64,000 bases of DNA from an uncultured Candidatus Saccharibacteria bacterium (GTDB lineage: Bacteria > Patescibacteriota > Minisyncoccia > Phycocordibacterales > UBA5272): NCBI GenBank assembly GCA_964464695.1, contig CAYXKW010000005.1, forward strand, positions 8,677-72,676, read 5' to 3'. The position numbers were made by a program, and so were the translations under genes. Positions 2,922 to 64,000 of this stretch are shown here, in pieces; the first letter of the stretch is position 1; each line of letters opens with the position of its first letter. The notes beneath the pieces were generated by a model that worked only from the letters and a program-made list of their open reading frames with translations, searched no databases and was not told the DNA's origin.

Positions 2922-4202
2922 ATGACTAAAAATATACAAGTCGTTTATCTATCAGTTGCCAGCCTTAACCCATCAGAGTACAATCCTCGCAAACATACAA
3001 CGGAACAAGCAAATCAGCTTAAAGAGAGTATTAAGCGATTCGGATTCATAGATCCAATAATCTGTAACAGTGCCAAAGGTCGAGAGAATACCGTTATCGG
3101 AGGGCACTTCCGCCTTGAGATGGCGAAGGAACTCAACATCACAGAAGTTCCTGTTGTGTTCGTAAACATTTCAGATCTTGAAAAGGAACAGGAGTTGAAT
3201 GTTCGCTTGAACAAAAACACTGGAGAATTTGATTTTGAAAAACTCCAACAATTAAACTTCGATATGCTGCTCGATATCGGTTTCGATCAAAAGGAGCTCG
3301 ACGACATATGGAATAACAAACTTAACAACAATGAGTTCAATGTCGAAGAAGAACTCAAGAAGATTAAGGAACCAAAGACACGAAAAGGCGACATTATTGT
3401 AATGGACGGATGCAGATTGATCTGTGGCGATTCACTTCTCCCTGAAACACTTCAAAAGCTTTTTGGTGACGAACGTGCTTCCTTAATAATCTCGGATCCA
3501 ATCTACAACATTTCTGTGAATTATGACAGTGGAATTGGGGGCAAACAAAGTTATGGAGGTACAGTCGATGATAACAAGACAGACAAGGAGTATGAAAACT
3601 TCTTGAGAAAGAGCATGGTCGCAGCACTCGCAGTAACAAAAGCTGATGCTAATATATTTTACTGGAGCGATCAGGCATATATCTGGCTTATTCAAACTCT
3701 CTACCGTGAACTTGGTATAACTAATCGTCGTGTGTGCATATGGTTGAAGAACTCACAAAATTGCGTACCTAAGGTAGCTTTCAACAAATGCTATGAACCG
3801 TGCACGTACGGTACTCGTGGTAAGCCGTATATTACAAAAGGTGTAAATGATCTCAATGAGATTATGAATGATGACATGACAACTGGTAATGATTTGTTAC
3901 AACAAGCACAAGATCATCTAACGGTATGGATGGAAAAGAGACTCTCTGGAAATGAGTACGAGCACAGCACTATGAAGCCAGATGAGGTCTATCAAAAAGC
4001 CATTCGTCGTTGTACAAAAATGAACGATATCATTCTTGATAGCTTCTCTGGTTCAGGAAGTACGATTATTGCAGGTATTAAGCTCAAACGCAGAGTGTAC
4101 GCTGTTGAAATTGAAGAAGTATTTTGTGACTTAACGATACGACGCTATGAAGCGTTAACAGGCAAAAAAGCAAAGGTTATCCGAAATGGCGAAAAAGGAT
4201 AA
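2922..4202 (+). CDS. ParB-like nuclease domain fused to a DNA methyltransferase, of the phage-type ParB/methylase kind
   Basis: N-terminal ParB/Srx-like region (IGGHFRLEMAKELNITEVPVVFV). C-terminal methyltransferase motif IV (SDPIYNI, a DPPY variant) lies upstream of motif I (ILDSFSGSGST), the beta-class order for N6A/N4C methyltransferases. Confidence 0.7.
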   Translation: MTKNIQVVYLSVASLNPSEYNPRKHTTEQANQLKESIKRFGFIDPIICNSAKGRENTVIGGHFRLEMAKELNITEVPVVFVNISDLEKEQELNVRLNKNTGEFDFEKLQQLNFDMLLDIGFDQKELDDIWNNKLNNNEFNVEEELKKIKEPKTRKGDIIVMDGCRLICGDSLLPETLQKLFGDERASLIISDPIYNISVNYDSGIGGKQSYGGTVDDNKTDKEYENFLRKSMVAALAVTKADANIFYWSDQAYIWLIQTLYRELGITNRRVCIWLKNSQNCVPKVAFNKCYEPCTYGTRGKPYITKGVNDLNEIMNDDMTTGNDLLQQAQDHLTVWMEKRLSGNEYEHSTMKPDEVYQKAIRRCTKMNDIILDSFSGSGSTIIAGIKLKRRVYAVEIEEVFCDLTIRRYEALTGKKAKVIRNGEKG

Positions 4203-4599
4203 AAAGGTTAAAGACTTTCTTGAACACCTTAACACCGTTCCCAATATTTCTCTCGCCTGTGAAAAAGTTGGCTTAGCGAGGAATACAATCTATCGTTGGT
4301 GTAAGGAAGATAAAGAGTTTCAGGAAAGTGTTGATAATGCACTTTTATGTGGCGTAGATTCTATTACAGATCTTGCAGAGAGTAAGCTCATAACTCATAT
4401 CAATAATGGAAACTTACGTTCTATTCAGTATTGGTTAGATAATCACAAAAAAGAGTATATACGACCACGAGTTATCGTAGATTCAAAAGATTCACTTGAA
4501 CCAATTTCGTACATTGAGATTCTTCCAGTAGATCCTAATAATCTTCCACCACCTCTACCGTTAAATGAATTTGATCTTCCTTTAGATTATATTGGTTAA
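4186..4599 (+). CDS. phage terminase small subunit-like HTH protein
   Basis: NTIYRWCKEDKEFQESVDNAL...LRSIQYWLDNHKKEYIRPR matches the conserved TerS N-terminal pattern (TVxRWL..EFR...AR..ADAL ... RLxVDTRKWxLSK). It overlaps the upstream gene by 17 nt. Confidence 0.55.
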   Translation: MAKKDKKVKDFLEHLNTVPNISLACEKVGLARNTIYRWCKEDKEFQESVDNALLCGVDSITDLAESKLITHINNGNLRSIQYWLDNHKKEYIRPRVIVDSKDSLEPISYIEILPVDPNNLPPPLPLNEFDLPLDYIG

Positions 4600-4733
4600 T
4601 AGTAACGGTAACAAAAACTATGACATAATGTCGTAGTTTTTGATATTTTGTAATATTTTTTTACTCTCACAATGTCGTCTTTTTTAGTTCTGCATAGACT
4701 ATGCAGGGATTATGGTTCTGTCATTAATATAAT

Positions 4734-6056
4734 ATGGAGACAAGAACAATTGGAAAGATACATAGCTCTGTAACCTTATCAGAAGTAAGAGTTAAGTACT
4801 GTCTATATGCTAGAAAATCAACTGAGTCAGATGAAATGCAAGCTTTGTCGATAGATTCACAGATTAAAGAAATGGAAGCTATAGCAGAGCGTTTAGGACT
4901 TTATGTTGTAGAAGTTAAAAGAGAATCTCATTCAGCAAAAGCTTCGGGTCAACGACCAGTGTATAAAAAGCTATTATCAGAAATTGATCAAGGAAAGTTT
5001 AACGGTGTATTAACGTGGGCGCCAGATCGGTTAAGTAGAAATGCAGGCGACCTGGGATCACTTGTTGATTTAATGGATCAGCGAAAATTAATCCATATAC
5101 AAACATATGGTCAAACTTTTTCTAACTCTCCTAATGAAAAGTTCTTGCTCATGATTCTTTGTTCTCAAGCAAAACTAGAAAATGATAATAAAAGTATTAA
5201 TGTTAAAAGAGGATTGAGAGCAAGAGTTGAAATGGGGTTATGGCCATGTCGTCCACCAACAGGATATACGAAGTTTAAAAGAATGGATCAAAAGTGCGAG
5301 TCTGTTATAGATGAAGTAAGGGCACCAATAATTAAACAAATGTTTGAAAAGGTTGGGTACGATGGTTGGTCTGGTAGAAAGGTGTGGGGTTGGCTTAAAG
5401 ATGATAAAGATTTTAAGACAGAGAATAATATACATCTAAGCTTAGGTAACTTTTATCGACTACTGCAAAATCACTTCTATTATGGAAGATTTGAATTCCC
5501 TAAAAACTCAGGAAATTGGTATAACGGATCACACATTCCAATTATCACAAAAGAACTCTTTGATTTAGTTCAAGAGAAAATTAAGAGTCAAATATTAGAA
5601 CCTAAAACCGAACAAAAGGAATTCGCTTTTACAAAGATCATGACATGCGGTCTGTGTGGTTCTGGTATTACAGCAGACGAGAAATTTAAACACCAACAAA
5701 ATGGTAATGTTCATAGATATGTGTACTACAAATGCACAAGAACGAGAGATCAGAATTGTCCCTGTGGTTTCCTTAATGAAGAGGATTTAATAGAACAACT
5801 AAAAGACCTCATTGATGATCTTAATATTCAGATAGTCCCCATGAAAGAGAAAATCACTAATGAGGTCAGAAGATTCAAGAAGTTTCAACATATGCTACTA
5901 GGAAACAAAACACCAATATCCGTTAAAGATATTGATATTCGTAACTATGCGAAGTTTATTTTGGTTGAGGGAGAAATGGAGGAAAAGAGAGAATTTTTTA
6001 AATGTCTCAATTCTAAGATACTACTATCGAATAAGAAAATTTTATTAGTAAATTAA
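4734..6056 (+). CDS. large serine recombinase, a phage-type integrase/resolvase
   Basis: N-terminal resolvase domain with catalytic Ser (YARKSTESDE ... LTWAPDRLSRN), a recombinase domain and a Cys-rich zinc ribbon (CGLCGS...YYKCTRTRDQNCPCG). 440 aa. Confidence 0.8.
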   Translation: METRTIGKIHSSVTLSEVRVKYCLYARKSTESDEMQALSIDSQIKEMEAIAERLGLYVVEVKRESHSAKASGQRPVYKKLLSEIDQGKFNGVLTWAPDRLSRNAGDLGSLVDLMDQRKLIHIQTYGQTFSNSPNEKFLLMILCSQAKLENDNKSINVKRGLRARVEMGLWPCRPPTGYTKFKRMDQKCESVIDEVRAPIIKQMFEKVGYDGWSGRKVWGWLKDDKDFKTENNIHLSLGNFYRLLQNHFYYGRFEFPKNSGNWYNGSHIPIITKELFDLVQEKIKSQILEPKTEQKEFAFTKIMTCGLCGSGITADEKFKHQQNGNVHRYVYYKCTRTRDQNCPCGFLNEEDLIEQLKDLIDDLNIQIVPMKEKITNEVRRFKKFQHMLLGNKTPISVKDIDIRNYAKFILVEGEMEEKREFFKCLNSKILLSNKKILLVN

Positions 6057-10946: not shown

Positions 10947-12469
10947 AAACTGTTACTAGTGATATAGTATTTTATTTTGTTCTTATCTATTTTTTGTGTT
11001 CTACCACTAAGAGGAAGTTCCATTATGATGATTTTATCAGGAAGAGCTGTTTTATCTATACTGTGCTCTCCTTTGCTTAATTCATTAAATATTCTTTTCT
11101 CAAAAGTCTTATTATCCTCTTGTAAGGTCATATCTTTTTCAATAGCTAAATAAATTTTCTCATCTTCTAATTCATCATTATAAATTCCCACCATTGCACA
11201 GTTTTTAATACCCCTTATATTACTTATCGTAGATTCAAAAATTGAGGGGTATATATTATAATTTTTTCTTATAATCATGTCTTTTTTTCTCCCTAATAGT
11301 ACTAGCCCATTTTTATCAAGAGTCCCTAGATCTCCAGTGTAATGTTCTGTTACCTTATCTAGTCCGAGGTATCTATTAAAAAGATTTTTTCCAGAAACAC
11401 AAATTTCATTGTCTATTATTCTTATTGTGACACCATTTGCAACTGTTCCTAGTAAGTCACCATTTGTATTTAAATTTATCTTATCTTGTAACTCCACATA
11501 CGAGATGGGTAATATTTCCGTTGCCCCGTAAACACAGATAACTTTTGTACTTTTAGATATTATTGTATTTAGTTTAGATAAAAATCCTTTTAAAACAGGA
11601 GCTGAGCCTAGGACGATTGTTTCAAGTGTATTTGGAAGTTTTACATTGTTTCGAGAACAAAACTCCATTGTTTGATTATACTCGGCAGGGATTCCAAAAG
11701 TTTTGTTTACTTTAAATTTAAGTACATCTTTATAAAACTTATCTGTTTTAAAATTAAGGTTACTTGGCAATACTACTCGTGACCCTGACAGGATAGACGC
11801 TAATAAAAAATGAAGTTGTGAGGAGTAGAAAATGTCAGTATGTTGTATATTAAGAATTTCTTCAATTTTTTTAAGTATTTCAAATAAGGATTCGTAGGTA
11901 TGAACCACGCCCTTCGGAATACCCGTTGTGCCAGATGTAAAAATAATTACAGAGTCTTTTTGATCATCTGTGCGTATTTCAGTAAAATTAGACTTATTAT
12001 TTTCAACTTTTTTAACGAGTATTTTATTAAGTTTTCTGAGTGTACTTATATCAGGAATATTTATATGGAACATCTTTATGAGAGTTTCAATATAAGGGGT
12101 GTTAATTATAGTGTTGAGAATCGGATCTACTAATACGTGTTCTGGTTTTGCAAAGTTAACTCTCCCAATAAAATTATCTTTCCCCATTGATGGGTCAGCT
12201 AAGACTAAAACACCACCAGCTCTAATAATTGCAAATATATACACAATACTTTCAATACTTGGTTTTGCTAGGAATAAGACTTTGTCCTCTTTTTTAAAAC
12301 CATTCTTAACTAAACGAATTGCTACTGAATCAATCTGAAGTAAAAAATCTTTAAAACTAATTTTTTTACCATTAGTAGTTTCTATAATTGATGTATCTTT
12401 TAGAAACTCTTTTTGTGAAAATAGTTTCTCTAAAATAAGATTAGAATACAAATTAATCTGTGATTTCAT
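10940..12469 (-). CDS. AMP-dependent synthetase/ligase, an adenylation enzyme
   Basis: AMP-binding core motif IFTSGTTGIPKGVVHT. 509 aa. It overlaps the upstream ACP gene. Confidence 0.75.
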   Translation of the reverse strand: MKSQINLYSNLILEKLFSQKEFLKDTSIIETTNGKKISFKDFLLQIDSVAIRLVKNGFKKEDKVLFLAKPSIESIVYIFAIIRAGGVLVLADPSMGKDNFIGRVNFAKPEHVLVDPILNTIINTPYIETLIKMFHINIPDISTLRKLNKILVKKVENNKSNFTEIRTDDQKDSVIIFTSGTTGIPKGVVHTYESLFEILKKIEEILNIQHTDIFYSSQLHFLLASILSGSRVVLPSNLNFKTDKFYKDVLKFKVNKTFGIPAEYNQTMEFCSRNNVKLPNTLETIVLGSAPVLKGFLSKLNTIISKSTKVICVYGATEILPISYVELQDKINLNTNGDLLGTVANGVTIRIIDNEICVSGKNLFNRYLGLDKVTEHYTGDLGTLDKNGLVLLGRKKDMIIRKNYNIYPSIFESTISNIRGIKNCAMVGIYNDELEDEKIYLAIEKDMTLQEDNKTFEKRIFNELSKGEHSIDKTALPDKIIIMELPLSGRTQKIDKNKIKYYITSNSLC

Positions 12470-12695
12470 TGTTAATTACCTTTAGTACATCACCTAGGGT
12501 TTTATATTTTCTAAATAGTTCTTTATTTTTAGGCTCAATGGTATATTTATTTTTAACTACAGCCAAAAGCTCCCCAAGATCTATCGAATCTTTAATATAG
12601 ATAGAAAGATCAGAAGATTCATTTAAGTCTTCTTGTATCTCAAATATGTAATTTAGTATCTCCACTAAGTTATCTTGTGTCATTTTGCTATGCAT
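12453..12695 (-). CDS. acyl carrier protein (phosphopantetheine-binding)
   Basis: 80-aa acidic protein with a DSIDLGEL serine attachment motif. Confidence 0.6.
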   Translation of the reverse strand: MHSKMTQDNLVEILNYIFEIQEDLNESSDLSIYIKDSIDLGELLAVVKNKYTIEPKNKELFRKYKTLGDVLKVINNEITD

Positions 12696-18331: not shown

Positions 18332-18405
18332 GGTGACCCCACGGAGAGTCGAACTCCGCTTACCGGCATGAAAAGCCGATGTCCTAACCGATAGACGATG
18401 GGGCC
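18332..18405 (-). tRNA. tRNA-Glu (UUC)
   Basis: Reverse complement GGCCCCATCGTCTATCGGTTAGGACATCGGCTTTTCATGCCGGTAAGCGGAGTTCGACTCTCCGTGGGGTCACC folds as a cloverleaf. Acceptor stem is 7 bp, anticodon loop TTTTCAT gives UUC, and the T-loop is GTTCGACT. Confidence 0.85.
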
Positions 18406-18439
18406 AATATTATTATTCTATATGTACACTCTATCATTC

Positions 18440-18538
18440 CCTCCGGCATGAAAAGCCGACTGCGCCTCACGGCGTGATTTACTAATCACCTAACCGATAG
18501 ACGAATTAGCAGATTCGTGGCTTGGCCCGATGGGGCCA
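18440..18538 (-). pseudogene. tRNA-Glu-like 5' fragment (first ~43 nt) split by two hairpin-forming insertions, with no T-arm or acceptor 3' strand
   Basis: Reverse complement reads GGCCCCATCG [GGCCAAGCCACGAATCTGCTAATTC] GTCTATCGGTTAGG [TGATTAGTAAATCACGCCGTGAGGCGCAG] TCGGCTTTTCATGCCGG. The three blocks are identical to tRNA-Glu positions 1-10, 11-24 and 27-43. Confidence 0.6.
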
Positions 18539-18658
18539 ATTTATAGATACAACTTAGAGTAGCTTTTACCTACTAAAGTCCTTGTATACTAACACAAAAG
18601 TTTACTTTTTCAAAATCGGTGGTAGTGTTGTATACTATATAACTATAAGAGCGGTTGG

Positions 18659-18680
18659 CTCGAGAAGCTTGGCTTCAAAG
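18659..18680 (+). promoter_or_regulatory. conserved palindrome-core motif TCGAGAAGCTTGGCTTC(A/G)AA about 90 bp upstream of tRNA-Val
   Basis: The same 20-mer occurs on the minus strand at 61191-61210 and 61316-61335 upstream of tRNA-Ile. It is followed by a perfect 10-bp hairpin at 18683-18706. Confidence 0.4.
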
Positions 18681-18766
18681 ATGCTTGAAACCAGCAGGTT
18701 TCAAGCGCAAGATGGTAGATATATCAATGCGTATACAAAGTGTGCCGGTGAAACAAATATAAACAC

Positions 18767-18839
18767 GGGCGGTTAGCTCAGTTGGTAGAGCGCCACATTG
18801 ACGTTGTGGATGTCAGAGGTTCGACTCCTCTATCGCCCA
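18767..18839 (+). tRNA. tRNA-Val (GAC)
   Basis: GGGCGGTTAGCTCAGTTGGTAGAGCGCCACATTGACGTTGTGGATGTCAGAGGTTCGACTCCTCTATCGCCCA. Anticodon loop TTGACGT gives GAC. Acceptor stem is 7 bp. Confidence 0.85.
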
Positions 18840-18896
18840 CAGAAATACAAAAAGCAGAATCACATGATTCTGCTTTTTGTATTTCTGTGGGCGATA
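18831..18896. repeat. perfect 30-bp inverted repeat (hairpin) whose 5' arm includes the last 9 nt of tRNA-Val; 6-nt loop cacatg
   Basis: 18831-18860 is exactly the reverse complement of 18867-18896. A second 9-bp hairpin, gaaaatgaa/ttcattttc, lies at 18898-18919. Confidence 0.85.
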
Positions 18897-29398: not shown

Positions 29399-29746
29399 AT
29401 GAAAATAGAAAAATTTGAAGACATCTACTCATGGCAAAAAGCCAAGTCTTTGTCTCTTTTTGTCTATAAAGTCTTCAGAACAAACAAAGACTATGCATTT
29501 CGAGACCAGATACAAAGGGCTAGCGTTTCTATATTAAATAATATTGCTGAAGGTTTTGAGAGAAAAAGCAACAAAGAGTTAAGTCACTTTCTTTTTATCG
29601 CAAAAGGTTCTTGTGGGGAAGTGAGATCAATGCTCTACCTTGCTCTAGAATTAGGATATATTTCTGAAAAAGATTTCCAAAAAATGTATACTGAGTGTAT
29701 CGAAATATCAAAAATGATGTCAGGACTTATAAAAACCCTAGTCTAA
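29399..29746 (+). CDS. four-helix-bundle protein, the TIGR02436 family often encoded in 23S rRNA intervening sequences
   Basis: FEDIYSWQKAKSLSLFVYKV ... ILNNIAEGFERKSNKE ... AKGSCGEVRSMLYLA are hallmark motifs. Confidence 0.8.
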   Translation: MKIEKFEDIYSWQKAKSLSLFVYKVFRTNKDYAFRDQIQRASVSILNNIAEGFERKSNKELSHFLFIAKGSCGEVRSMLYLALELGYISEKDFQKMYTECIEISKMMSGLIKTLV

Positions 29747-29841
29747 AATCACTTTATGAACTCCTTTCTTTATAACTTTATGAACTTTTCCCCTGTATTA
29801 CTTTACAAACTTTATAACTTTAATAACTTTCAACTAATCGT

Positions 29842-30618
29842 ATGAAATTTAGTATTATCACCCCAACACATAAAAGAAAAGAAAAGTTAGAGCGTGCGGT
29901 CTCTTCTTTATTGTCTCAGACGTACACAGATTGGGAGTTGATTATTGTAAACGATTCACCCTACGACGAAACCTACAAGGAATTTGCTTCTTCTATTAAC
30001 GACGCAAGAATCCGTTATTATGTAAACCAAAAAAACGAAGGCGTAAATTACTCTCGGAATTTCGCACTTGATAAACTTTCCGCAGACTCCAAATGGGTAA
30101 TTATGTTAGATGATGATGACTACCTTGCACCGGATGCTCTTGCTACATTTTCACAACTAATACTATTAAACATTGGAAATAAGTGGCTAATGACTAATCG
30201 CACATACCGAAACGGAGTATCTGTAACACACGCTCCACAAGAAGACACTCTGTATTCCTACACTACAAGCTATCTTCTCTTTAAACAAATCAAAGGTGAT
30301 GCGACTCATTGTATAGAAACAAAATTAATAACTCAGTCACATGCTCGGTTTTCAAAATATGTAAAACAAGGAGAAGAGTGGTTCTTCTTTTATCAGATTG
30401 GGCTACATACCAAACTCTTCTACCACGACCACAATAGCACCATCACAGATGGCTATGATGCTGAACAAGGACTTAATTTTCGTAAGCGTACTTTTACTGA
30501 AAAATATGAAACGATCCTCAAACTCTTTTATGAAGGTGGTAGAAAAAAAATACTACGACCAACATTTCTCATGTATCTATTCTTTAGAACTTTAAAGCTC
30601 TTCATCCCAAAAAAATAG
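29842..30618 (+). CDS. family 2 glycosyltransferase
   Basis: FSIITPTHKRKEKLERAVSSLLSQTYTDWELIIVNDSP ... MLDDDD. Confidence 0.7.
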   Translation: MKFSIITPTHKRKEKLERAVSSLLSQTYTDWELIIVNDSPYDETYKEFASSINDARIRYYVNQKNEGVNYSRNFALDKLSADSKWVIMLDDDDYLAPDALATFSQLILLNIGNKWLMTNRTYRNGVSVTHAPQEDTLYSYTTSYLLFKQIKGDATHCIETKLITQSHARFSKYVKQGEEWFFFYQIGLHTKLFYHDHNSTITDGYDAEQGLNFRKRTFTEKYETILKLFYEGGRKKILRPTFLMYLFFRTLKLFIPKK

Positions 30619-30681
30619 ACATTCAGGAAACCTTGAATGTCTTGATGTGAAAACGTGTCTAATCTTGAAAGATATCTCAGC

Positions 30682-31497
30682 TTAAGAAGCCATCATCCTG
30701 CTGACCATGAATTTTGCAACCTTTTCATTGCCGGCGATGAGTGGATACTCACCTTTTGGATCGAAAGGCATCGTGCCGATTGAGTTACCTTCATGATCAA
30801 GGACAATTCCACCGGCGCCCTTAATGAGCGCATAAACTGCACCAATTTCTTCTGCACGAACAGAAATCCCACCCATACACGCAGAGATATCAGAAAGTGT
30901 GTACATGAGATTTCCGACAACAGAACCAGCACAACGAATGAAAACTTCTTCGGCAAATGTGGTGTAGGCTTTCATTCCTGCTTTGTAGAAAGTGTCGAGA
31001 TACACCGGAGTAGTCTTGTGAACTTCCCAATCAGGACTCAAGGTAACCTTGTCGCCATTGTGGTCAATAGTATCTTTCCCATCGAAGATAAAGAAGTTAC
31101 CCGTTGTGTGCTCAATCATTCCGGCAACCAGTACATCATCAAGTGTTGGTTGAAGTCCATTGAAAAAAGCAACAAGCGTTCCGAAAGGAAGCATTTCTTT
31201 ACCCCGCTTATAGTTGATGCTTCCATCGAGCGGATCCATCGCAAACGTGTAAAGCGGATTTTTGTGCGACGCACCGATATCCCCAGCTTCTTCAGAATAA
31301 ATTTGCACAGGCAGACCTCTCCCTTGAATATGACTCAGCACAGCCTCTTCAATGGCGACATCCATCAGGAGTGATTTATCCCCTTTGGAATTTGTCGTAC
31401 CTATCTCACCTTTCTGACTTGAGACACCCAAGAGGTACATGCGATGTGCAACGGAAAGAATTTTCTCAAGCTCTTGAACTAGATTGATTTGCATTCT
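30682..31497 (-). CDS. inositol-monophosphatase-family phosphatase (IMPase/SuhB-like); start chosen at MQINLVQ
   Basis: DPLDGS metal-binding motif and C-terminal GGISVRAEEIGAVYALIKGAGGIVLD. GC is ~45%, against ~34% in the flanks. Confidence 0.65.
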   Translation of the reverse strand, partial: RMQINLVQELEKILSVAHRMYLLGVSSQKGEIGTTNSKGDKSLLMDVAIEEAVLSHIQGRGLPVQIYSEEAGDIGASHKNPLYTFAMDPLDGSINYKRGKEMLPFGTLVAFFNGLQPTLDDVLVAGMIEHTTGNFFIFDGKDTIDHNGDKVTLSPDWEVHKTTPVYLDTFYKAGMKAYTTFAEEVFIRCAGSVVGNLMYTLSDISACMGGISVRAEEIGAVYALIKGAGGIVLDHEGNSIGTMPFDPKGEYPLIAGNEKVAKFMVSRMMAS

Positions 31498-31574
31498 GCT
31501 TTCCCCTTCATATGTAAAGTTATTTAACGAAAAAAGAACATATTTATTTTGGCATTTATTTCTGAATTTGTCAA

Positions 31575-31603
31575 TTGACAAATTAAGTTAAATATGCTAT
31601 AAT
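31575..31603 (+). promoter_or_regulatory. consensus sigma70-type promoter TTGACA-N17-TATAAT
   Basis: ttgaca at 31575-31580, a 17-nt spacer, tataat at 31598-31603. The -35 sits inside the perfect 10-bp palindrome gtcaattgac. An SD-like aaggaaaa precedes the ATG at 31663. Confidence 0.55.
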
Positions 31604-31662
31604 ATATATACCTTTAAGGTCTGATTCCGCACAGTTTGCGGGGCTCTTTAACAAGGAAAAGC

Positions 31663-32385
31663 ATGAGCAATCTCAAGTGGCCAATTTTCACAGCCGAAAG
31701 CGTCTTCCAAGGCGTTCGCGACCTCGGCATCATGTCGTGGCCTCGTCTCTCTGATCCGGTTGCTATCACGGAATATTTGCGTGACGCGAGTTCGGATCAA
31801 TTGAAGACGTACGAACGCTTCGCCCCGAAGAGTTCGGTGGTTTACCACAAGAACCCGCACAACGGAACAACGTTCGATGGGTTCAAGGTGGACTTCAAGC
31901 CCTACGCCTGCGTCTTCGCACTGATTGACGGTATGGTGCCGGTTACTGCCGAGTGGAAACATGGCAACGATCGCATCACCCTCGTCCCAGTCTGTGGCGT
32001 CCCCGGTAAAACCGAAGATAGCTTCACAACTCTGACCGAGAAGATGTACGCTGTTGGTTTGCGTGAATGGGAAGAAGAAACGGGCACCAAGCTGAAGAAC
32101 CTGGTCCCACTTTCCGGCCCCGAAGGCATCTACTCGACGGTGCGCAACTGCAAGGTGCAGTGCTTCCCCTTCTTGGGTGAAGTCGAGGACAATGTCGTCC
32201 AAGGACCGACCAAGTTCGACGACACCGAGCATTTGAAGATGGTTCTCATTCCGCTTCCGGAATGGATCCAGCTCATCACAAGTGTTGAACTGTGGGCACA
32301 GAACCCAGACTTCGGTCTGGAAGCCTGCACGCGAGACGTGACATGGGCAGCCCTCCACAAAATGGGCCGCCTCCAACTGGTCTAA
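31663..32385 (+). CDS. NUDIX hydrolase, high GC (~55%); a horizontally acquired gene
   Basis: NUDIX box ...EKMYAVGLREWEEETGT. Uniformly GC-rich codons in a ~34%-GC genome. A consensus promoter lies upstream and a strong terminator downstream. The overlapping minus-strand ORFs are GC-induced artefacts. Confidence 0.65.
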   Translation: MSNLKWPIFTAESVFQGVRDLGIMSWPRLSDPVAITEYLRDASSDQLKTYERFAPKSSVVYHKNPHNGTTFDGFKVDFKPYACVFALIDGMVPVTAEWKHGNDRITLVPVCGVPGKTEDSFTTLTEKMYAVGLREWEEETGTKLKNLVPLSGPEGIYSTVRNCKVQCFPFLGEVEDNVVQGPTKFDDTEHLKMVLIPLPEWIQLITSVELWAQNPDFGLEACTRDVTWAALHKMGRLQLV

Positions 32386-32409
32386 GGGTCATCTTGCCCT
32401 TTTGACCAG

Positions 32410-32446
32410 AAACCGCCGCCTTCATCATGGAGGCGGTTTTTTTATA
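32410..32446 (+). terminator. rho-independent terminator: aaaccgccgcc...ggcggttt followed by a T-run
   Basis: Seen directly in the sequence. Confidence 0.75.
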
Positions 32447-32497
32447 CAACAGCGTACGAAAGTAAACGAAATACAAGCATAAACCTCACATCTCAGC

Positions 32498-32525
32498 TTG
32501 ATTAGTCATTTTTTTTCTATATAAT
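32498..32525 (+). promoter_or_regulatory. promoter TTGATT-N16-TATAAT upstream of the GDP-mannose epimerase operon
   Basis: ttgatt at 32498-32503, tataat at 32520-32525. Confidence 0.4.
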
Positions 32526-32581
32526 AGATTGTATGTTTGGTTCGCAGAAATTATAACTTTTAGTACGATATTATTTTTATT

Positions 32582-33550
32582 ATGAAAACAGCACTCGTTT
32601 GTGGAGCAGGAGGTTTTATTGGAGGACATCTTGTAAAACGTCTCAAAGATGAAGGTTTTTGGGTTCGCGGTGTCGACTTAAAAAAGAACGAGTACTCAAA
32701 GTCAAATGCTGATGAATTTATTATCGGAGATCTTCGTGATCAAAAACTTTGCGAGACTATTCTTGATAAGTCGTTCGATGAGGTGTACCAACTAGCTGCT
32801 GATATGGGTGGTGCTGGCTATATTTTTACTGGCGAGCACGATGCTGATGTTATGCATAATTCTGCAACTATTAATCTCAACATTCTCCACTACGGACAAA
32901 AAATTGGGATCAAAAAAATATTCTACTCTTCTTCTGCATGTATCTACCCTGAGTACAATCAACTTGATCCAGAAAATCCAAAGTGCTCAGAAGAGTCAGC
33001 TTACCCTGCGGCTCCAGACAGTGAATATGGTTGGGAGAAATTATTTAGTGAAAGACTCTACCTTTCATACAACAGAAACTATAAAATGGATGTTCGTGTA
33101 GCGCGATTCCATAATATTTTCGGGCCAGAAGGTACGTGGGAAGGAGGTAAGGAAAAAGCCCCAGCTGCGATGTGTAGAAAAATTGCAGAAGTGAAGAATG
33201 GCGGCGAAATAGAAATCTGGGGAGACGGTCGTCAAACGCGATCATTCCTCTATATCGATGAATGTTTAGAAGGTGTACGAAGACTTATGGATTCTGATTT
33301 CTTAGGACCTGTAAACATTGGATCAGATGAGATGGTAACCATCAATCAGCTCGCTGAAATGGTTGCAGAAATTGCTGGTAAAAAAATTACTATCAATCAC
33401 ATTCCTGGACCACTTGGCGTACGTGGAAGAAACTCAGACAATGAGCTCATTGAGAAAAAAATTGGATGGAGACCACACTTCTCACTAAAAAATGGTCTTG
33501 AGATTACTTATACATGGATACACAATCAAGTGGAAGCAAAAAAGAAATAA
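32582..33550 (+). CDS. GDP-mannose 3,5-epimerase (GME-like SDR)
   Basis: Block-by-block match to plant/bacterial GME as recalled: ADMGGAGYI, FYSSSACIYPEYNQL, EYGWEKL, RFHNIFGPEGTWEGGKEKAPAAMCRK, WGDGRQTRSFLYIDEC, VNIGSDEMVTINQLAEM, HIPGPLGVRGRNSDN. Confidence 0.75.
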   Translation: MKTALVCGAGGFIGGHLVKRLKDEGFWVRGVDLKKNEYSKSNADEFIIGDLRDQKLCETILDKSFDEVYQLAADMGGAGYIFTGEHDADVMHNSATINLNILHYGQKIGIKKIFYSSSACIYPEYNQLDPENPKCSEESAYPAAPDSEYGWEKLFSERLYLSYNRNYKMDVRVARFHNIFGPEGTWEGGKEKAPAAMCRKIAEVKNGGEIEIWGDGRQTRSFLYIDECLEGVRRLMDSDFLGPVNIGSDEMVTINQLAEMVAEIAGKKITINHIPGPLGVRGRNSDNELIEKKIGWRPHFSLKNGLEITYTWIHNQVEAKKK

Positions 33551-34101
33551 TCCCTTGGGAACTTTTAAGCGAGGAAAATATTTCCCCAAGCCATTACTTT
33601 CCTCTCTTTAAGCAGAAGGTTAAAATTCATAACGGAAAAGTTTTTGATGATTACTACATTACGAAGCTTGTAGATGCAACTATGGTGGTTGCAGTTACAA
33701 AAGAAAAAGAGTTACTCATGGTGAGACAGTGGCGACAAGGTACTTTAGAAATTACTCTTGAACTACCCTGTGGTCAAAATGATCCACATGAAAGCACTCT
33801 TGATGCTGCAAAGCGAGAGCTACACGAAGAAACTGGTGCAAATGTCATATCAGAACTTGTTCCACTTGGAAAAGTTTCTCCAATCACTCCCAAAGCAACG
33901 CTTCGTATCTACGGTTATTTTTGTACAATTGATTCAACGCTTGAGAAGCAAGACTTAGATGACACTGAGAACATTGAGGTAATTAAAGTCCCTTTCACTG
34001 ATATCGATAAGCTCCTCCTTTCGGGAGAAATCAACGCGGCAGATACTATCTCTTTTATCTCATTAGCACGAATAAAGTTTCCTAAATTATTTTTACTATA
34101 A
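33514..34101 (+). CDS. NUDIX hydrolase, of the nucleotide-sugar or ADP-ribose pyrophosphatase type
   Basis: NUDIX box ELPCGQNDPHESTLDAAKRELHEETG. The true start may be an internal codon, because the ORF overlaps the upstream gene by 37 nt. Confidence 0.7.
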   Translation: MDTQSSGSKKEIIPWELLSEENISPSHYFPLFKQKVKIHNGKVFDDYYITKLVDATMVVAVTKEKELLMVRQWRQGTLEITLELPCGQNDPHESTLDAAKRELHEETGANVISELVPLGKVSPITPKATLRIYGYFCTIDSTLEKQDLDDTENIEVIKVPFTDIDKLLLSGEINAADTISFISLARIKFPKLFLL

Positions 34102-61032: not shown

Positions 61033-61108
61033 TGGTGCGCGGTCCTGGATTCGAACCAGGGACCGCTCGAGTATCAGTCGAGTGCTCTACCAACTGAGCT
61101 AACCGCGC
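61033..61108 (-). tRNA. tRNA-Ile (GAU), CCA encoded
   Basis: Reverse complement GCGCGGTTAGCTCAGTTGGTAGAGCACTCGACTGATACTCGAGCGGTCCCTGGTTCGAATCCAGGACCGCGCACCA. Anticodon loop CTGATAC gives GAU. Confidence 0.85.
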
Positions 61109-63631: not shown

Positions 63632-64000
63632 AGAACAATTTCACATTGAATTAATCCACGACCAGCTTCCGCTAGCCGTGCCTTGTTACGACTTACTCCC
63701 TGTCACCGAATTTACCTTAGTCCTGGACAAGCCAAGCCTTTGGGTACCCCCGGCTCCCTTGAGTTGACGGGCAGTGAGTACAAGAGACGAGAACGTATTC
63801 ACCGCGGTTTAGCTGACCCGCGATTACTAGCAATTCCGGCTTCATGTGGTCGAGTTGCAGACCACAATCTGAACTGGCGGGCGGTTTGAAGGATTGGCTC
63901 AGGGTTACCCCGTCGCGACCCGTTGTCCGCCCGATTGTATTATGTGTGTAGCCCAGGATGTCAAAGGGACATGCTGACCTGGCGTCATCCTCTCCTTCCT
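63632..64000 (-). rRNA. rrs: 16S ribosomal RNA, 3' terminal ~370 nt (partial; continues beyond the window)
   Basis: The reverse complement contains GCGGTGAATACGTTCTCG...CTTGTACTCACTGCCCGTCA...AAGTCGTAACAAGG (the 1390-1500 region and helix 44/45), and further upstream AGGAAGGAGAGGATGACGCCAGGTCAGCATGTCCCTTTGACATCCTGGGCTACACACATAATACAAT (the ~1175-1250 region). Confidence 0.9.

Follow-up and report, generated by a model that had tools for sequence, protein, structure and literature searches.

Origin and possible role of a GC-rich Nudix gene paired with a phosphatase gene in an AT-rich Saccharibacteria glycan locus

Does a single GC-rich gene in AT-rich surroundings mark a recent arrival, or can it be a resident of the locus in which it stands? 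This question is raised by a 64,000-nt stretch of DNA from an uncultured Candidatus Saccharibacteria bacterium (assembly GCA_964464695.1, contig CAYXKW010000005.1, positions 8,677 to 72,676), which we refer to as the window. A Nudix hydrolase gene in the window (31663-32385, plus strand), for which we use the name NUDL, is transcribed divergently from a gene of the fructose-1,6-bisphosphatase/inositol monophosphatase (FBPase/IMPase) family (30682-31494, minus strand). An initial annotation proposed that the two genes form one insert, recently transferred from a higher-GC donor. We find that the GC excess is limited to the NUDL coding sequence (CDS), is inherited with the gene and has outlasted the saturation of synonymous sites. 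Because the excess persists past saturation and stays with the gene, it is not the footprint of a recent transfer. On balance, we lean towards the view that NUDL and the IMPase gene are a resident, divergently transcribed pair of the glycan locus, that gene-specific selection holds the GC content of NUDL at third codon positions (GC3) high, and that the pair would act in the trimming of nucleoside diphosphate (NDP) sugars.

The GC excess is limited to the Nudix coding sequence and inherited with it

The window is AT-rich (GC 0.356). The 59 open reading frames (ORFs) besides NUDL have a mean GC3 of 0.286, with a standard deviation of 0.057 and a maximum of 0.441. NUDL encodes 240 amino acids and has a GC content of 0.549, with values of 0.564, 0.398 and 0.685 at the first, second and third codon positions (GC1, GC2 and GC3). 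Its GC3 makes it the single outlier within the window (z = 7.1), and the large jump to about 55% GC described in the initial annotation was therefore real. The figure of about 45% GC given there for the IMPase-family gene was also accurate (0.449). When GC and GC3 were computed across the window, however, the two genes parted: NUDL deviates from its host, whereas the IMPase gene lies inside the range of the other window genes, with a near-normal GC3 of 0.421 (z ~2.4) and most of its GC excess at codon positions 1 and 2. The boundaries of the GC step are the start and the end of the NUDL CDS. Intergenic regions have 30-36% GC, the divergent 168-nt spacer between the two genes has 30%, and the 100 nt beyond the NUDL terminator have 23%.

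A check for absence of the gene from related genomes found it at the same site in several of them. The order DUF268, glycosyltransferase, GT2 glycosyltransferase, a variable gene, NUDL and epimerase recurs in the genomes that we label L003, L004, L006/L010, L031, L012 and L013, and L032 carries a rearranged copy of the same locus with the Nudix gene. These syntenic loci were found via the Nudix gene itself, and genomes without the gene are therefore outside the sample. Altogether, NUDL orthologues are co-located in at least seven related glycan loci; they are 55-82% identical, and their synonymous sites are near saturation. Amino-acid identities of NUDL among the window, L003, L004 and L006 (0.82/0.63/0.55) parallel those of two neighbouring glycosyltransferase genes, GT2 (0.76/0.64/0.61) and GTsug (0.78/0.63/0.57). 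The homologues that were located (38 homologues; 12 genome loci; ~83 clusters at E < 1e-30) come from metagenome-assembled genomes (MAGs) of Patescibacteria or from unassigned metagenome contigs. The one exception among the genome matches is a distant homologue on a MAG labelled Gammaproteobacteria. Best matches in one lineage, together with conserved synteny, are the result that the initial annotation had itself named as speaking against its transfer proposal.

The GC3 excess is common to most of these orthologues. NUDL has a GC3 of 0.685 against 0.286 for its flank in the window, and the corresponding pairs of values are 0.56 and 0.30 in L003, 0.564 and 0.326 in L004, 0.743 and 0.337 in L010, and 0.459 and 0.293 in L031. 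Further orthologues behave likewise, with 0.63 and 0.39 in L022, 0.61 and 0.43 in L023, 0.51 and 0.33 in L014, 0.41 and 0.27 in L013, and 0.81 and 0.42 in L015. In L011, a genome of 54% GC, NUDL reaches 0.825 and its flank 0.616. Distant homologues with less than 40% identity have no GC3 excess.

How long could a transferred gene keep such an excess? The decay was estimated with an F81-type neutral model on flanking four-fold degenerate sites. At identical residues, four-fold sites are 30-42% identical between genomes, and 25-34% is expected from composition. Across 691 flanking four-fold sites, the window and L003 retain a shared ancestry of r = 0.127 (0.072-0.177), so that under neutral decay a lineage keeps at most ~0.42 of its initial compositional excess. 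NUDL now stands at a four-fold GC of 0.70 and its background at 0.25, and with no more than 0.42 of the excess kept, a starting value above 1 would be needed. Therefore, the window gene cannot be accounted for by a transfer before the window-L003 split and neutral amelioration since then, and a transfer after that split would require an independent repeat at the same site in each lineage. Parsimony polarisation of synonymous changes points to a net AT-to-GC shift on the window branch (19 vs 9) and on the L006 branch (18 vs 10), but it is unreliable at this saturation and was not used.

The initial proposal would have the IMPase gene and NUDL arrive recently from a higher-GC donor, as one cassette that brought along its expression signals. 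The size of the compositional jump (z = 7.1) and the presence of a promoter and a terminator belonging to NUDL are what such a cassette would show, as is a 10-nt direct repeat, ATCTCAGCTT, which brackets the pair at 30674 and 32490 and is matched in 1.8% of flank shuffles. We nevertheless consider a recent cassette very improbable, given orthologues at the same position in at least seven loci, at 55-82% identity and with near-saturated synonymous sites. The repeat, which extends to 16 of 20 matching positions (30674-30693 and 32490-32509), occurs in the window only and is absent from the orthologues; it is probably due to chance. Its right copy overlaps the conserved -35 region of the epimerase promoter, and a target-site duplication was rejected on these grounds. 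No integrase or transposase was found within 20 kb of the pair. No relatives of the Nudix gene turned up in phage, plasmid and IMG/VR collections, and a link to mobile elements was likewise rejected.

Nor do the two genes behave as a single insert. The IMPase GC3 is only 0.42, and the gene beside NUDL differs between genomes: elsewhere it is a cupin gene, a gene for a 158-aa protein or a cytidylyltransferase-like gene. Because this neighbour varies, the IMPase-Nudix pair is not one insert. An IMPase-family gene does adjoin the Nudix gene in eight loci, and it comes from two subfamilies that have no tblastn match to each other. The divergent pair is found in the window, L003, L004 and L031, and a same-strand operon, with the Nudix gene after the IMPase gene and among housekeeping genes, is found in L008/L011, L033, L019 and L020, which are more distant members of the candidate phyla radiation (CPR). 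That the partner recurs in eight loci and is drawn from two subfamilies points to a functional link between the genes and not to their joint transfer.

Phage "morons" and small genomic islets are promoter-gene-terminator cassettes of deviant composition, and NUDL resembles them in being a self-contained transcription unit of deviant GC between genes of an operon-like cluster. Unlike a moron, it stands outside a prophage, has neither mobility genes nor phage, plasmid or viral homologues, and keeps its position across deeply diverged genomes.

Codon choice, mRNA folding and a probable force behind the excess

If recent transfer does not account for the excess, what maintains it? The codon usage of NUDL is selective. 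All 12 of its 12 Phe codons are TTC (24% TTC in the background), Arg is written as CGY and Gly as GGY, and ATA, AGA, AGG, CTA, TTA and GTA are avoided. Pooled over nine orthologues, NNC accounts for 316 of 444 codons and AAG for 87 of 137, but GAG for only 67 of 174. This pattern is not a plain GC shift, as Lys moves to AAG yet Glu stays GAA. The tRNA genes of the window include tRNA-Glu(UUC) and tRNA-Val(GAC). The same signature of AAG, NNC and GAA appears in other GC-elevated genes, namely the epimerase of L012/L013, a gene for a Band_7 protein and a 252-aa ORF.

The retention of GAA bears on GC-biased gene conversion, which could have raised the GC of the segment at a recombination hotspot. 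Recombination is evident at this locus. The JGI contig L034 and the window are 100% identical over 31503-33165, but identity falls to 75-89% across the IMPase gene and varies from 82% to 99% in GT2 (29900-30600); this switch in identity places a recombination breakpoint in the divergent IMPase/NUDL promoter region. Different genes occupy the interval between GT2 and the epimerase in different genomes, G- and C-ending codons are both enriched in NUDL, and GC1 and GC2 are slightly raised, all of which a conversion hotspot could produce. However, the excess ends at the CDS boundaries, the co-inherited GT2, GTsug and IMPase genes are not enriched, and keeping GAA while gaining AAG is not expected from a bias acting on bases. 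A rise of +0.4 in GC3 also far exceeds the effects reported in bacteria. We therefore regard gene conversion as a quite unlikely source of the excess.

The NUDL transcript also folds more strongly than its protein sequence demands. Compared with synonymous shuffles, 14 of 14 orthologues are more stable (z from -0.96 to -5.78, mean -2.8), and 17 control genes have a mean z of -0.8 (Mann-Whitney p = 9e-5 against the Nudix orthologues). The excess survives dinucleotide-preserving shuffles (8/8; z from -2.1 to -4.4) and 30-codon-block shuffles (10/10; z from -2.2 to -5.3), and an artefact was rejected on that basis. It is present in the low-GC3 orthologues L012 and L016, is weaker on the antisense strand in all seven orthologues compared, and is missing from the first 120 nt in 13 of 14. 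No conserved RNA structure was found in the CDS (RNAalifold -5.85 kcal/mol, covariation term -0.74), and only 0-12% of the minimum-free-energy (MFE) base pairs are common to the orthologues. These data indicate that the degree of mRNA folding is kept and that no particular fold is.

This outcome also makes it extremely unlikely that a second function encoded in the CDS, whether an antisense protein or a conserved structured RNA, forces the gene to be GC-rich. The folding excess is significant and the window does contain a full-length antisense ORF of 242 codons (31648-32376, minus strand), with three shorter ones also opposite NUDL; the initial annotation had called these phantoms, rightly in our view. 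The long ORF keeps exact codon alignment with the sense frame, and it stays open solely for lack of TTA, CTA and TCA codons in the sense gene. In a set of orthologues that includes L003, L004 and L006/L010 the ORF is broken, and an antisense gene was rejected. As for RNA, searches of the 5' untranslated region (UTR) and the CDS against Rfam gave no meaningful match at the gathering cut-off or at E <= 10, and the complete 5' UTR shows no significant folding (z = -0.18). A known RNA element or riboswitch in either part was rejected for these two reasons.

Several genes elsewhere share one or another of these traits. In L012 (10828-11832) and L013 (10828-11823), the epimerase gene is inverted and has a GC3 of 0.53 and 0.57, respectively, against ~0.27-0.30, with folding z-scores of -4.8 and -3.1; in these two genomes, the GC3 of the Nudix gene is raised slightly at most. 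In L015, a Magasanikbacteria MAG, a second, unrelated Nudix ORF of 296 aa (11676-12566, minus strand) lies ~1 kb from NUDL, with a GC3 of 0.75 against 0.42 and a folding z of -2.9; only the Nudix box is common to the two. The IMPase orthologue of L003 (2466-3287, minus strand) has a folding z of -4.26 despite a GC3 of 0.37, and the window IMPase gene has a z of -0.2.

From the persistence of the excess we infer that a gene-specific force keeps the GC3 of NUDL high. Selection on synonymous sites, acting on codon choice (NNC, AAG, CGY and GGY, with GAA kept) or on mRNA folding, is the likeliest such force. Under this model, selection for particular codons, or for a strongly folded, long-lived and well-expressed mRNA, would maintain the GC3 of the gene.

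A number of observations weigh against a resident pair held in this state by selection and engaged in NDP-sugar trimming. Three members of the core family, L012, L016 and L032, have little or no GC3 excess. Excess folding is not peculiar to NUDL, since other GC-elevated genes have it too (z from -1.8 to -4.8), as does one IMPase gene (-4.3). In an Akashi-type test, GC-ending codons were not enriched at conserved residues in the GC-rich orthologues, and the pooled z of 2.0 stems mainly from low-GC orthologues. The effective number of codons (Nc) lies just 5-15 under Wright's curve, like that of other genes, a measure that is uninformative at this gene length. The sole ribosomal-protein gene seen, rplU of the distant L036, has a GC3 of 0.39, not above its neighbours. 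In TsaD and WzyC, L031 and the window share 81-89% identity, a figure that falls to 59% in NUDL, and the L013 gene is misplaced in the NUDL tree, which was built by neighbour-joining only. Finally, the substrate and the two-step route proposed for the pair are drawn only from family membership and gene neighbourhood.

The departures of L031 and L013 from the backbone indicate that NUDL alleles have been exchanged, and they introduce the main rival, which is a serious one. NUDL could have been acquired long ago from a higher-GC Patescibacteria lineage and then been swapped, by homologous or xenologous replacement, within the glycan locus, its GC being incompletely ameliorated. The family does occur in the higher-GC genomes L011 (54%) and L015 (44%), and distant members have 50-56% GC. 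Two allele groups stand off the backbone: group A (window, L003, L004 and L006; GC3 0.56-0.74) and group B (L031, L012 and L032; GC3 0.25-0.46), with L013 misplaced. The strain-mosaic breakpoint in the IMPase/NUDL intergenic region fits such swapping, the AAG/NNC/GAA signature shared with nearby GC-elevated genes could reflect one donor, and GC1 and GC2 of the Nudix gene are somewhat raised as well. The low-GC3 orthologues keep more of their GC-ending codons at conserved residues, as if they were decaying.

Other data do not fit an old transfer, which we judge unlikely on the whole though far from negligible. To decay neutrally to its present value since the window and L003 separated, NUDL would have had to start from a four-fold GC of more than 100%. 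The GC step coincides with the CDS boundaries, and the promoter and UTR are host-like, at 23-30% GC. NUDL exceeds its host in GC3 even in the 54%-GC genome, and no member of the core family is clearly under host GC3. The homologue in L003, the nearest one with sequenced flanks, and the other syntenic orthologues stand in low-GC DNA. The higher-GC backgrounds of L011 and L015 lack the signature of AAG over AAA with GAA over GAG, and the folding excess is still present in the low-GC3 genes of L012 and L016.

The encoded proteins, their expression signals and their surroundings

The initial annotation labelled the plus-strand protein as NUDIX, and this holds even though the protein has no Pfam or NCBIfam family match at threshold (PF00293 scores 16.0 bits against a cut-off of 21.1). 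Only 7 of 38 homologues carry precomputed PF00293 matches. In the 38-homologue alignment, the catalytic residues R134, E135 and E139 are invariant, E118 and E138 are nearly so, and G141 is invariant as well. The window protein contains the pieces of the Nudix box as G112-x5-E118 and R134-E135-W-E-E138-E139-T-G141-T. The spacing from E118 to R134 is 15 residues rather than 7 in the window protein and the core clade, which carry an 8-residue insertion, and the distant members P0036-P0038 keep the canonical GX5EX7REUXEEXGU spacing. An AlphaFold (AF2) model built on the homologue alignment has a predicted local distance difference test (pLDDT) score of 92.8 and a predicted template-modelling (pTM) score of 0.87, and it shows the alpha/beta/alpha sandwich of the Nudix fold. 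When the model was compared with the PDB by Foldseek, 260 chains matched at E <= 1e-3 and the best 50 were all Nudix enzymes. The best matches (E ~1e-9) were Ndx2, the Bdellovibrio NDP-sugar hydrolase Bd3179, NudE, NudF-type ADP-ribose pyrophosphatases (ADPRases), NUDT5 and YffH, with target-normalised TM-scores of 0.71-0.77. By motif, family alignment and predicted fold, then, the protein is a divergent Nudix enzyme, and its predicted fold matches the ADP-ribose/NDP-sugar pyrophosphatase class.

The window protein shares with the known pyrophosphatases of that class (2yvm, 5c7q, 1vhz, 3o6z, NudF-type enzymes and NUDT5) its predicted fold, the REx2EE helix and its size class, and it has a weak sequence link to 2w4e. 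It differs from them in a ~55-residue N-terminal extension with three short helices, in the 8-residue insertion that the core clade carries in the box between the Glu and the RE, and in a conserved family-specific motif, AEWKHG. It also differs in remaining below threshold in Pfam and NCBIfam and in having homologues confined to Patescibacteria MAGs or unassigned contigs. A profile search of 1.84 billion representatives returned ~83 full-length clusters at E < 1e-30; below these, the family profile reaches ordinary Nudix proteins of ~190 aa (E from 1e-10 to 1e-15). The enzyme class itself is well known; the subfamily is new and is missed by the current Pfam and NCBIfam models. We found nothing in the literature on this subfamily or on codon anomalies of Nudix genes in Patescibacteria or Saccharibacteria.

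The minus-strand gene encodes a predicted sugar-phosphate phosphatase of the FBPase/IMPase family (270 aa). PF00459 matches at 37.3 bits against a cut-off of 27, and the best NCBIfam match is the bifunctional FBPase/IMPase. The metal-binding motifs of the superfamily are EE, DPxDG[ST] and WD/YD-x-AAG; two stretches, IYSEEAG and AMDPLDGS, align to such motifs of AF2372 (1lbv), with SEE and DPLDGS kept. Profile and motifs together place the protein in the superfamily, in agreement with the identity first proposed for it. It is similar in length to archaeal and bacterial members (AF2372; MJ0109, 1dk4; SuhB-like proteins) and shares PF00459 and the metal motifs with them. It scores only ~31 bits against solved members, however, and has Glu in place of Asp in the third motif (RAEEIGA vs RIYDAAA of AF2372). 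The protein belongs to a small subfamily known only from metagenome or MAG contigs, which are CPR-like where checked. An alphaproteobacterial donor was considered for this gene and rejected, the 'Vitreimonas' match being on a 41%-GC, CPR-like contig that is probably mislabelled. The contig (L036; GCA_035627515.1, DASPLQ010000012.1) is 1.4 Mb long, and with this GC content and gene complement its label, Vitreimonas sp., looks wrong. A phage-type integrase lies 1.7 kb upstream of its IMPase homologue.

The expression signals described in the initial annotation were all recovered. A predicted sigma-70-type promoter of NUDL (31575-31603, plus strand) matches TTGACA-N17-TATAAT at 12 of 12 positions and has an extended -10 TG at 31595-31596. 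It is the only perfect match in the 64 kb, where 0.05 are expected and 4 of 100 shuffles contain at least one. Facing the IMPase gene is a promoter-like site (31574-31546, minus strand) that reads TTGACA-17-CAAAAT with a TG and matches at 10 of 12 positions. The 10-bp palindrome GTCAATTGAC (31570-31579), an inverted repeat noted earlier as holding the -35 element, is made by the two -35 hexamers. The two genes are divergent transcription units whose predicted promoters have a palindromic arrangement, with the -35 hexamers back to back.

Downstream of the NUDL promoter, the 5' UTR contains a hairpin of sequence CCGCA-CAGTT-TGCGG (31627-31641, plus strand). Its counterpart in L003 (upstream of 4033), CCGTA-CAGTT-TACGG, differs from it by one compensatory pair, and the remaining orthologues have unrelated small hairpins at a similar position. 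The Shine-Dalgarno-like sequence is AAGGA (31653-31657, plus strand), five bases 5' of the ATG. The strong terminator after the gene (32415-32447, plus strand) has a stem of 10 pairs (32415-32437; 6 G-C) followed by TTTTTTT. Most Nudix orthologues have their own TTGACA/TTGACT-type promoter and comparable Shine-Dalgarno sequences are found among them; a terminator lies 3' of the gene in nearly all. Taken together, the predicted promoter, 5' hairpin, Shine-Dalgarno sequence and terminator fit a strongly and stably expressed monocistronic mRNA. On the other side of the pair, a terminator-like hairpin just 3' of the IMPase stop (30617-30642, minus strand) has a 9-pair stem followed by ATTTTTTT and is placed between the convergent GT2 and IMPase genes.

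Downstream of NUDL lies a GDP-mannose 3,5-epimerase gene (32582-33550, plus strand; E = 1e-105 to the Arabidopsis GME 2c59) with a normal GC3 of 0.31 and its own promoter-like site (32498-32525, plus strand). A canonical NudE/YffH-like Nudix hydrolase gene (33514-34101, plus strand) shares 37 nt with the 3' end of the epimerase gene. The products of the wider locus include glycosyltransferases, a Wzy-type polymerase, a CDP-sugar 4,6-dehydratase, a thiamine pyrophosphate (TPP) enzyme and a nucleotidyltransferase. The setting among glycan and sugar-nucleotide genes, which the initial annotation had recognised, is confirmed by these genes and by the adjoining epimerase. Between two glycosyltransferase genes, in the 29399-29830 region, the window and L034 have a PF05635 gene (23S-rRNA-intervening-sequence protein), which L003, L031 and L035 lack at this junction. 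Downstream of the gene are three ~21-nt tandem repeats (29748-29830).

Two further features of the window lie away from this locus. A low-GC block at ~6.0-17.5 kb (GC 0.25-0.31, GC3 0.18-0.25) contains lipid- and glycan-type ORFs, with ParB-like and serine-recombinase-like ORFs (2922-6056) ahead of it and genes for tRNA-Glu and tRNA-Val (18332-18840) behind it. This block looks more like an acquired island than the Nudix gene does. At the other end, the 3' part of a 16S rRNA gene (63644-64000, minus strand) and a tRNA-Ile gene (61033-61108, minus strand) are 2.5 kb apart, with opposite-strand ORFs between them. No 23S gene follows within the window, suggesting an unlinked or interrupted rRNA operon.

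A possible route for nucleotide-sugar turnover

What might the pair do? From the adjoining epimerase and the predicted Nudix fold, a role as nucleotide-sugar hydrolase plus phosphatase is plausible. The Nudix enzyme would cleave an NDP-sugar to a nucleoside monophosphate and a sugar phosphate, and the IMPase-family enzyme would then remove the phosphate, freeing the sugar. The adjacent GDP-mannose 3,5-epimerase could supply the substrate as GDP-L-galactose or GDP-L-gulose; in genomes that have the pair by itself, an ADP-ribose-like compound is an alternative candidate. In this way the pair may trim, control or recycle the nucleotide-sugar pool or glycan precursors.

Two known systems offer comparisons. 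In E. coli, Gmm/WcaH (NudD) is a small, single-domain Nudix GDP-mannose hydrolase of the colanic-acid cluster that cleaves the glycosidic bond. Like it, NUDL lies among genes for GDP-sugar-modifying short-chain dehydrogenases/reductases (SDRs) of a surface-polysaccharide locus and presumably tunes the nucleotide-sugar pool. There is, however, no specific sequence relationship, NUDL is paired with a phosphatase, and the closer positional analogue of Gmm/WcaH is the canonical Nudix gene at 33514-34101. In the plant Smirnoff-Wheeler pathway, GME and VTC2/5 are followed by VTC4, an IMPase-family L-galactose-1-phosphate phosphatase. By a purely hypothetical analogy, the window would provide an epimerase, an IMPase-family phosphatase and an enzyme able to release a sugar 1-phosphate from a GDP-sugar. 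The releasing enzyme here would be a Nudix hydrolase rather than a HIT-family phosphorylase, no downstream dehydrogenase was seen, and several genomes have the Nudix-IMPase pair without a nearby epimerase.

Tentatively, it is possible that AT-rich Patescibacteria have a small class of genes kept GC-rich at synonymous codons and strongly folded by selection, over divergences at which neutral sites are saturated, that NUDL is the most consistent member of this class, and that together with the IMPase it could form a CPR-specific two-step route for stripping nucleotide and phosphate from NDP-sugars. If so, such a "codon and structure island" would mark a strongly and stably expressed enzyme, and the route could serve the salvage or control of surface-glycan precursors.

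A gene that stands out alone by its GC content is commonly taken as the product of recent horizontal transfer, a reading that fails a direct test here. The result is a caution for composition-based island callers, as a syntenic, lineage-restricted gene is still an outlier after neutral turnover. If selection on synonymous sites or mRNA folding is indeed responsible, NUDL would be a clean case from nature in slow-growing CPR bacteria with reduced genomes, a setting in which selection of this kind is commonly taken to be weak. From the recurrent Nudix-IMPase pair comes a concrete biochemical hypothesis on how organisms reliant on nucleotide scavenging turn over their nucleotide sugars.

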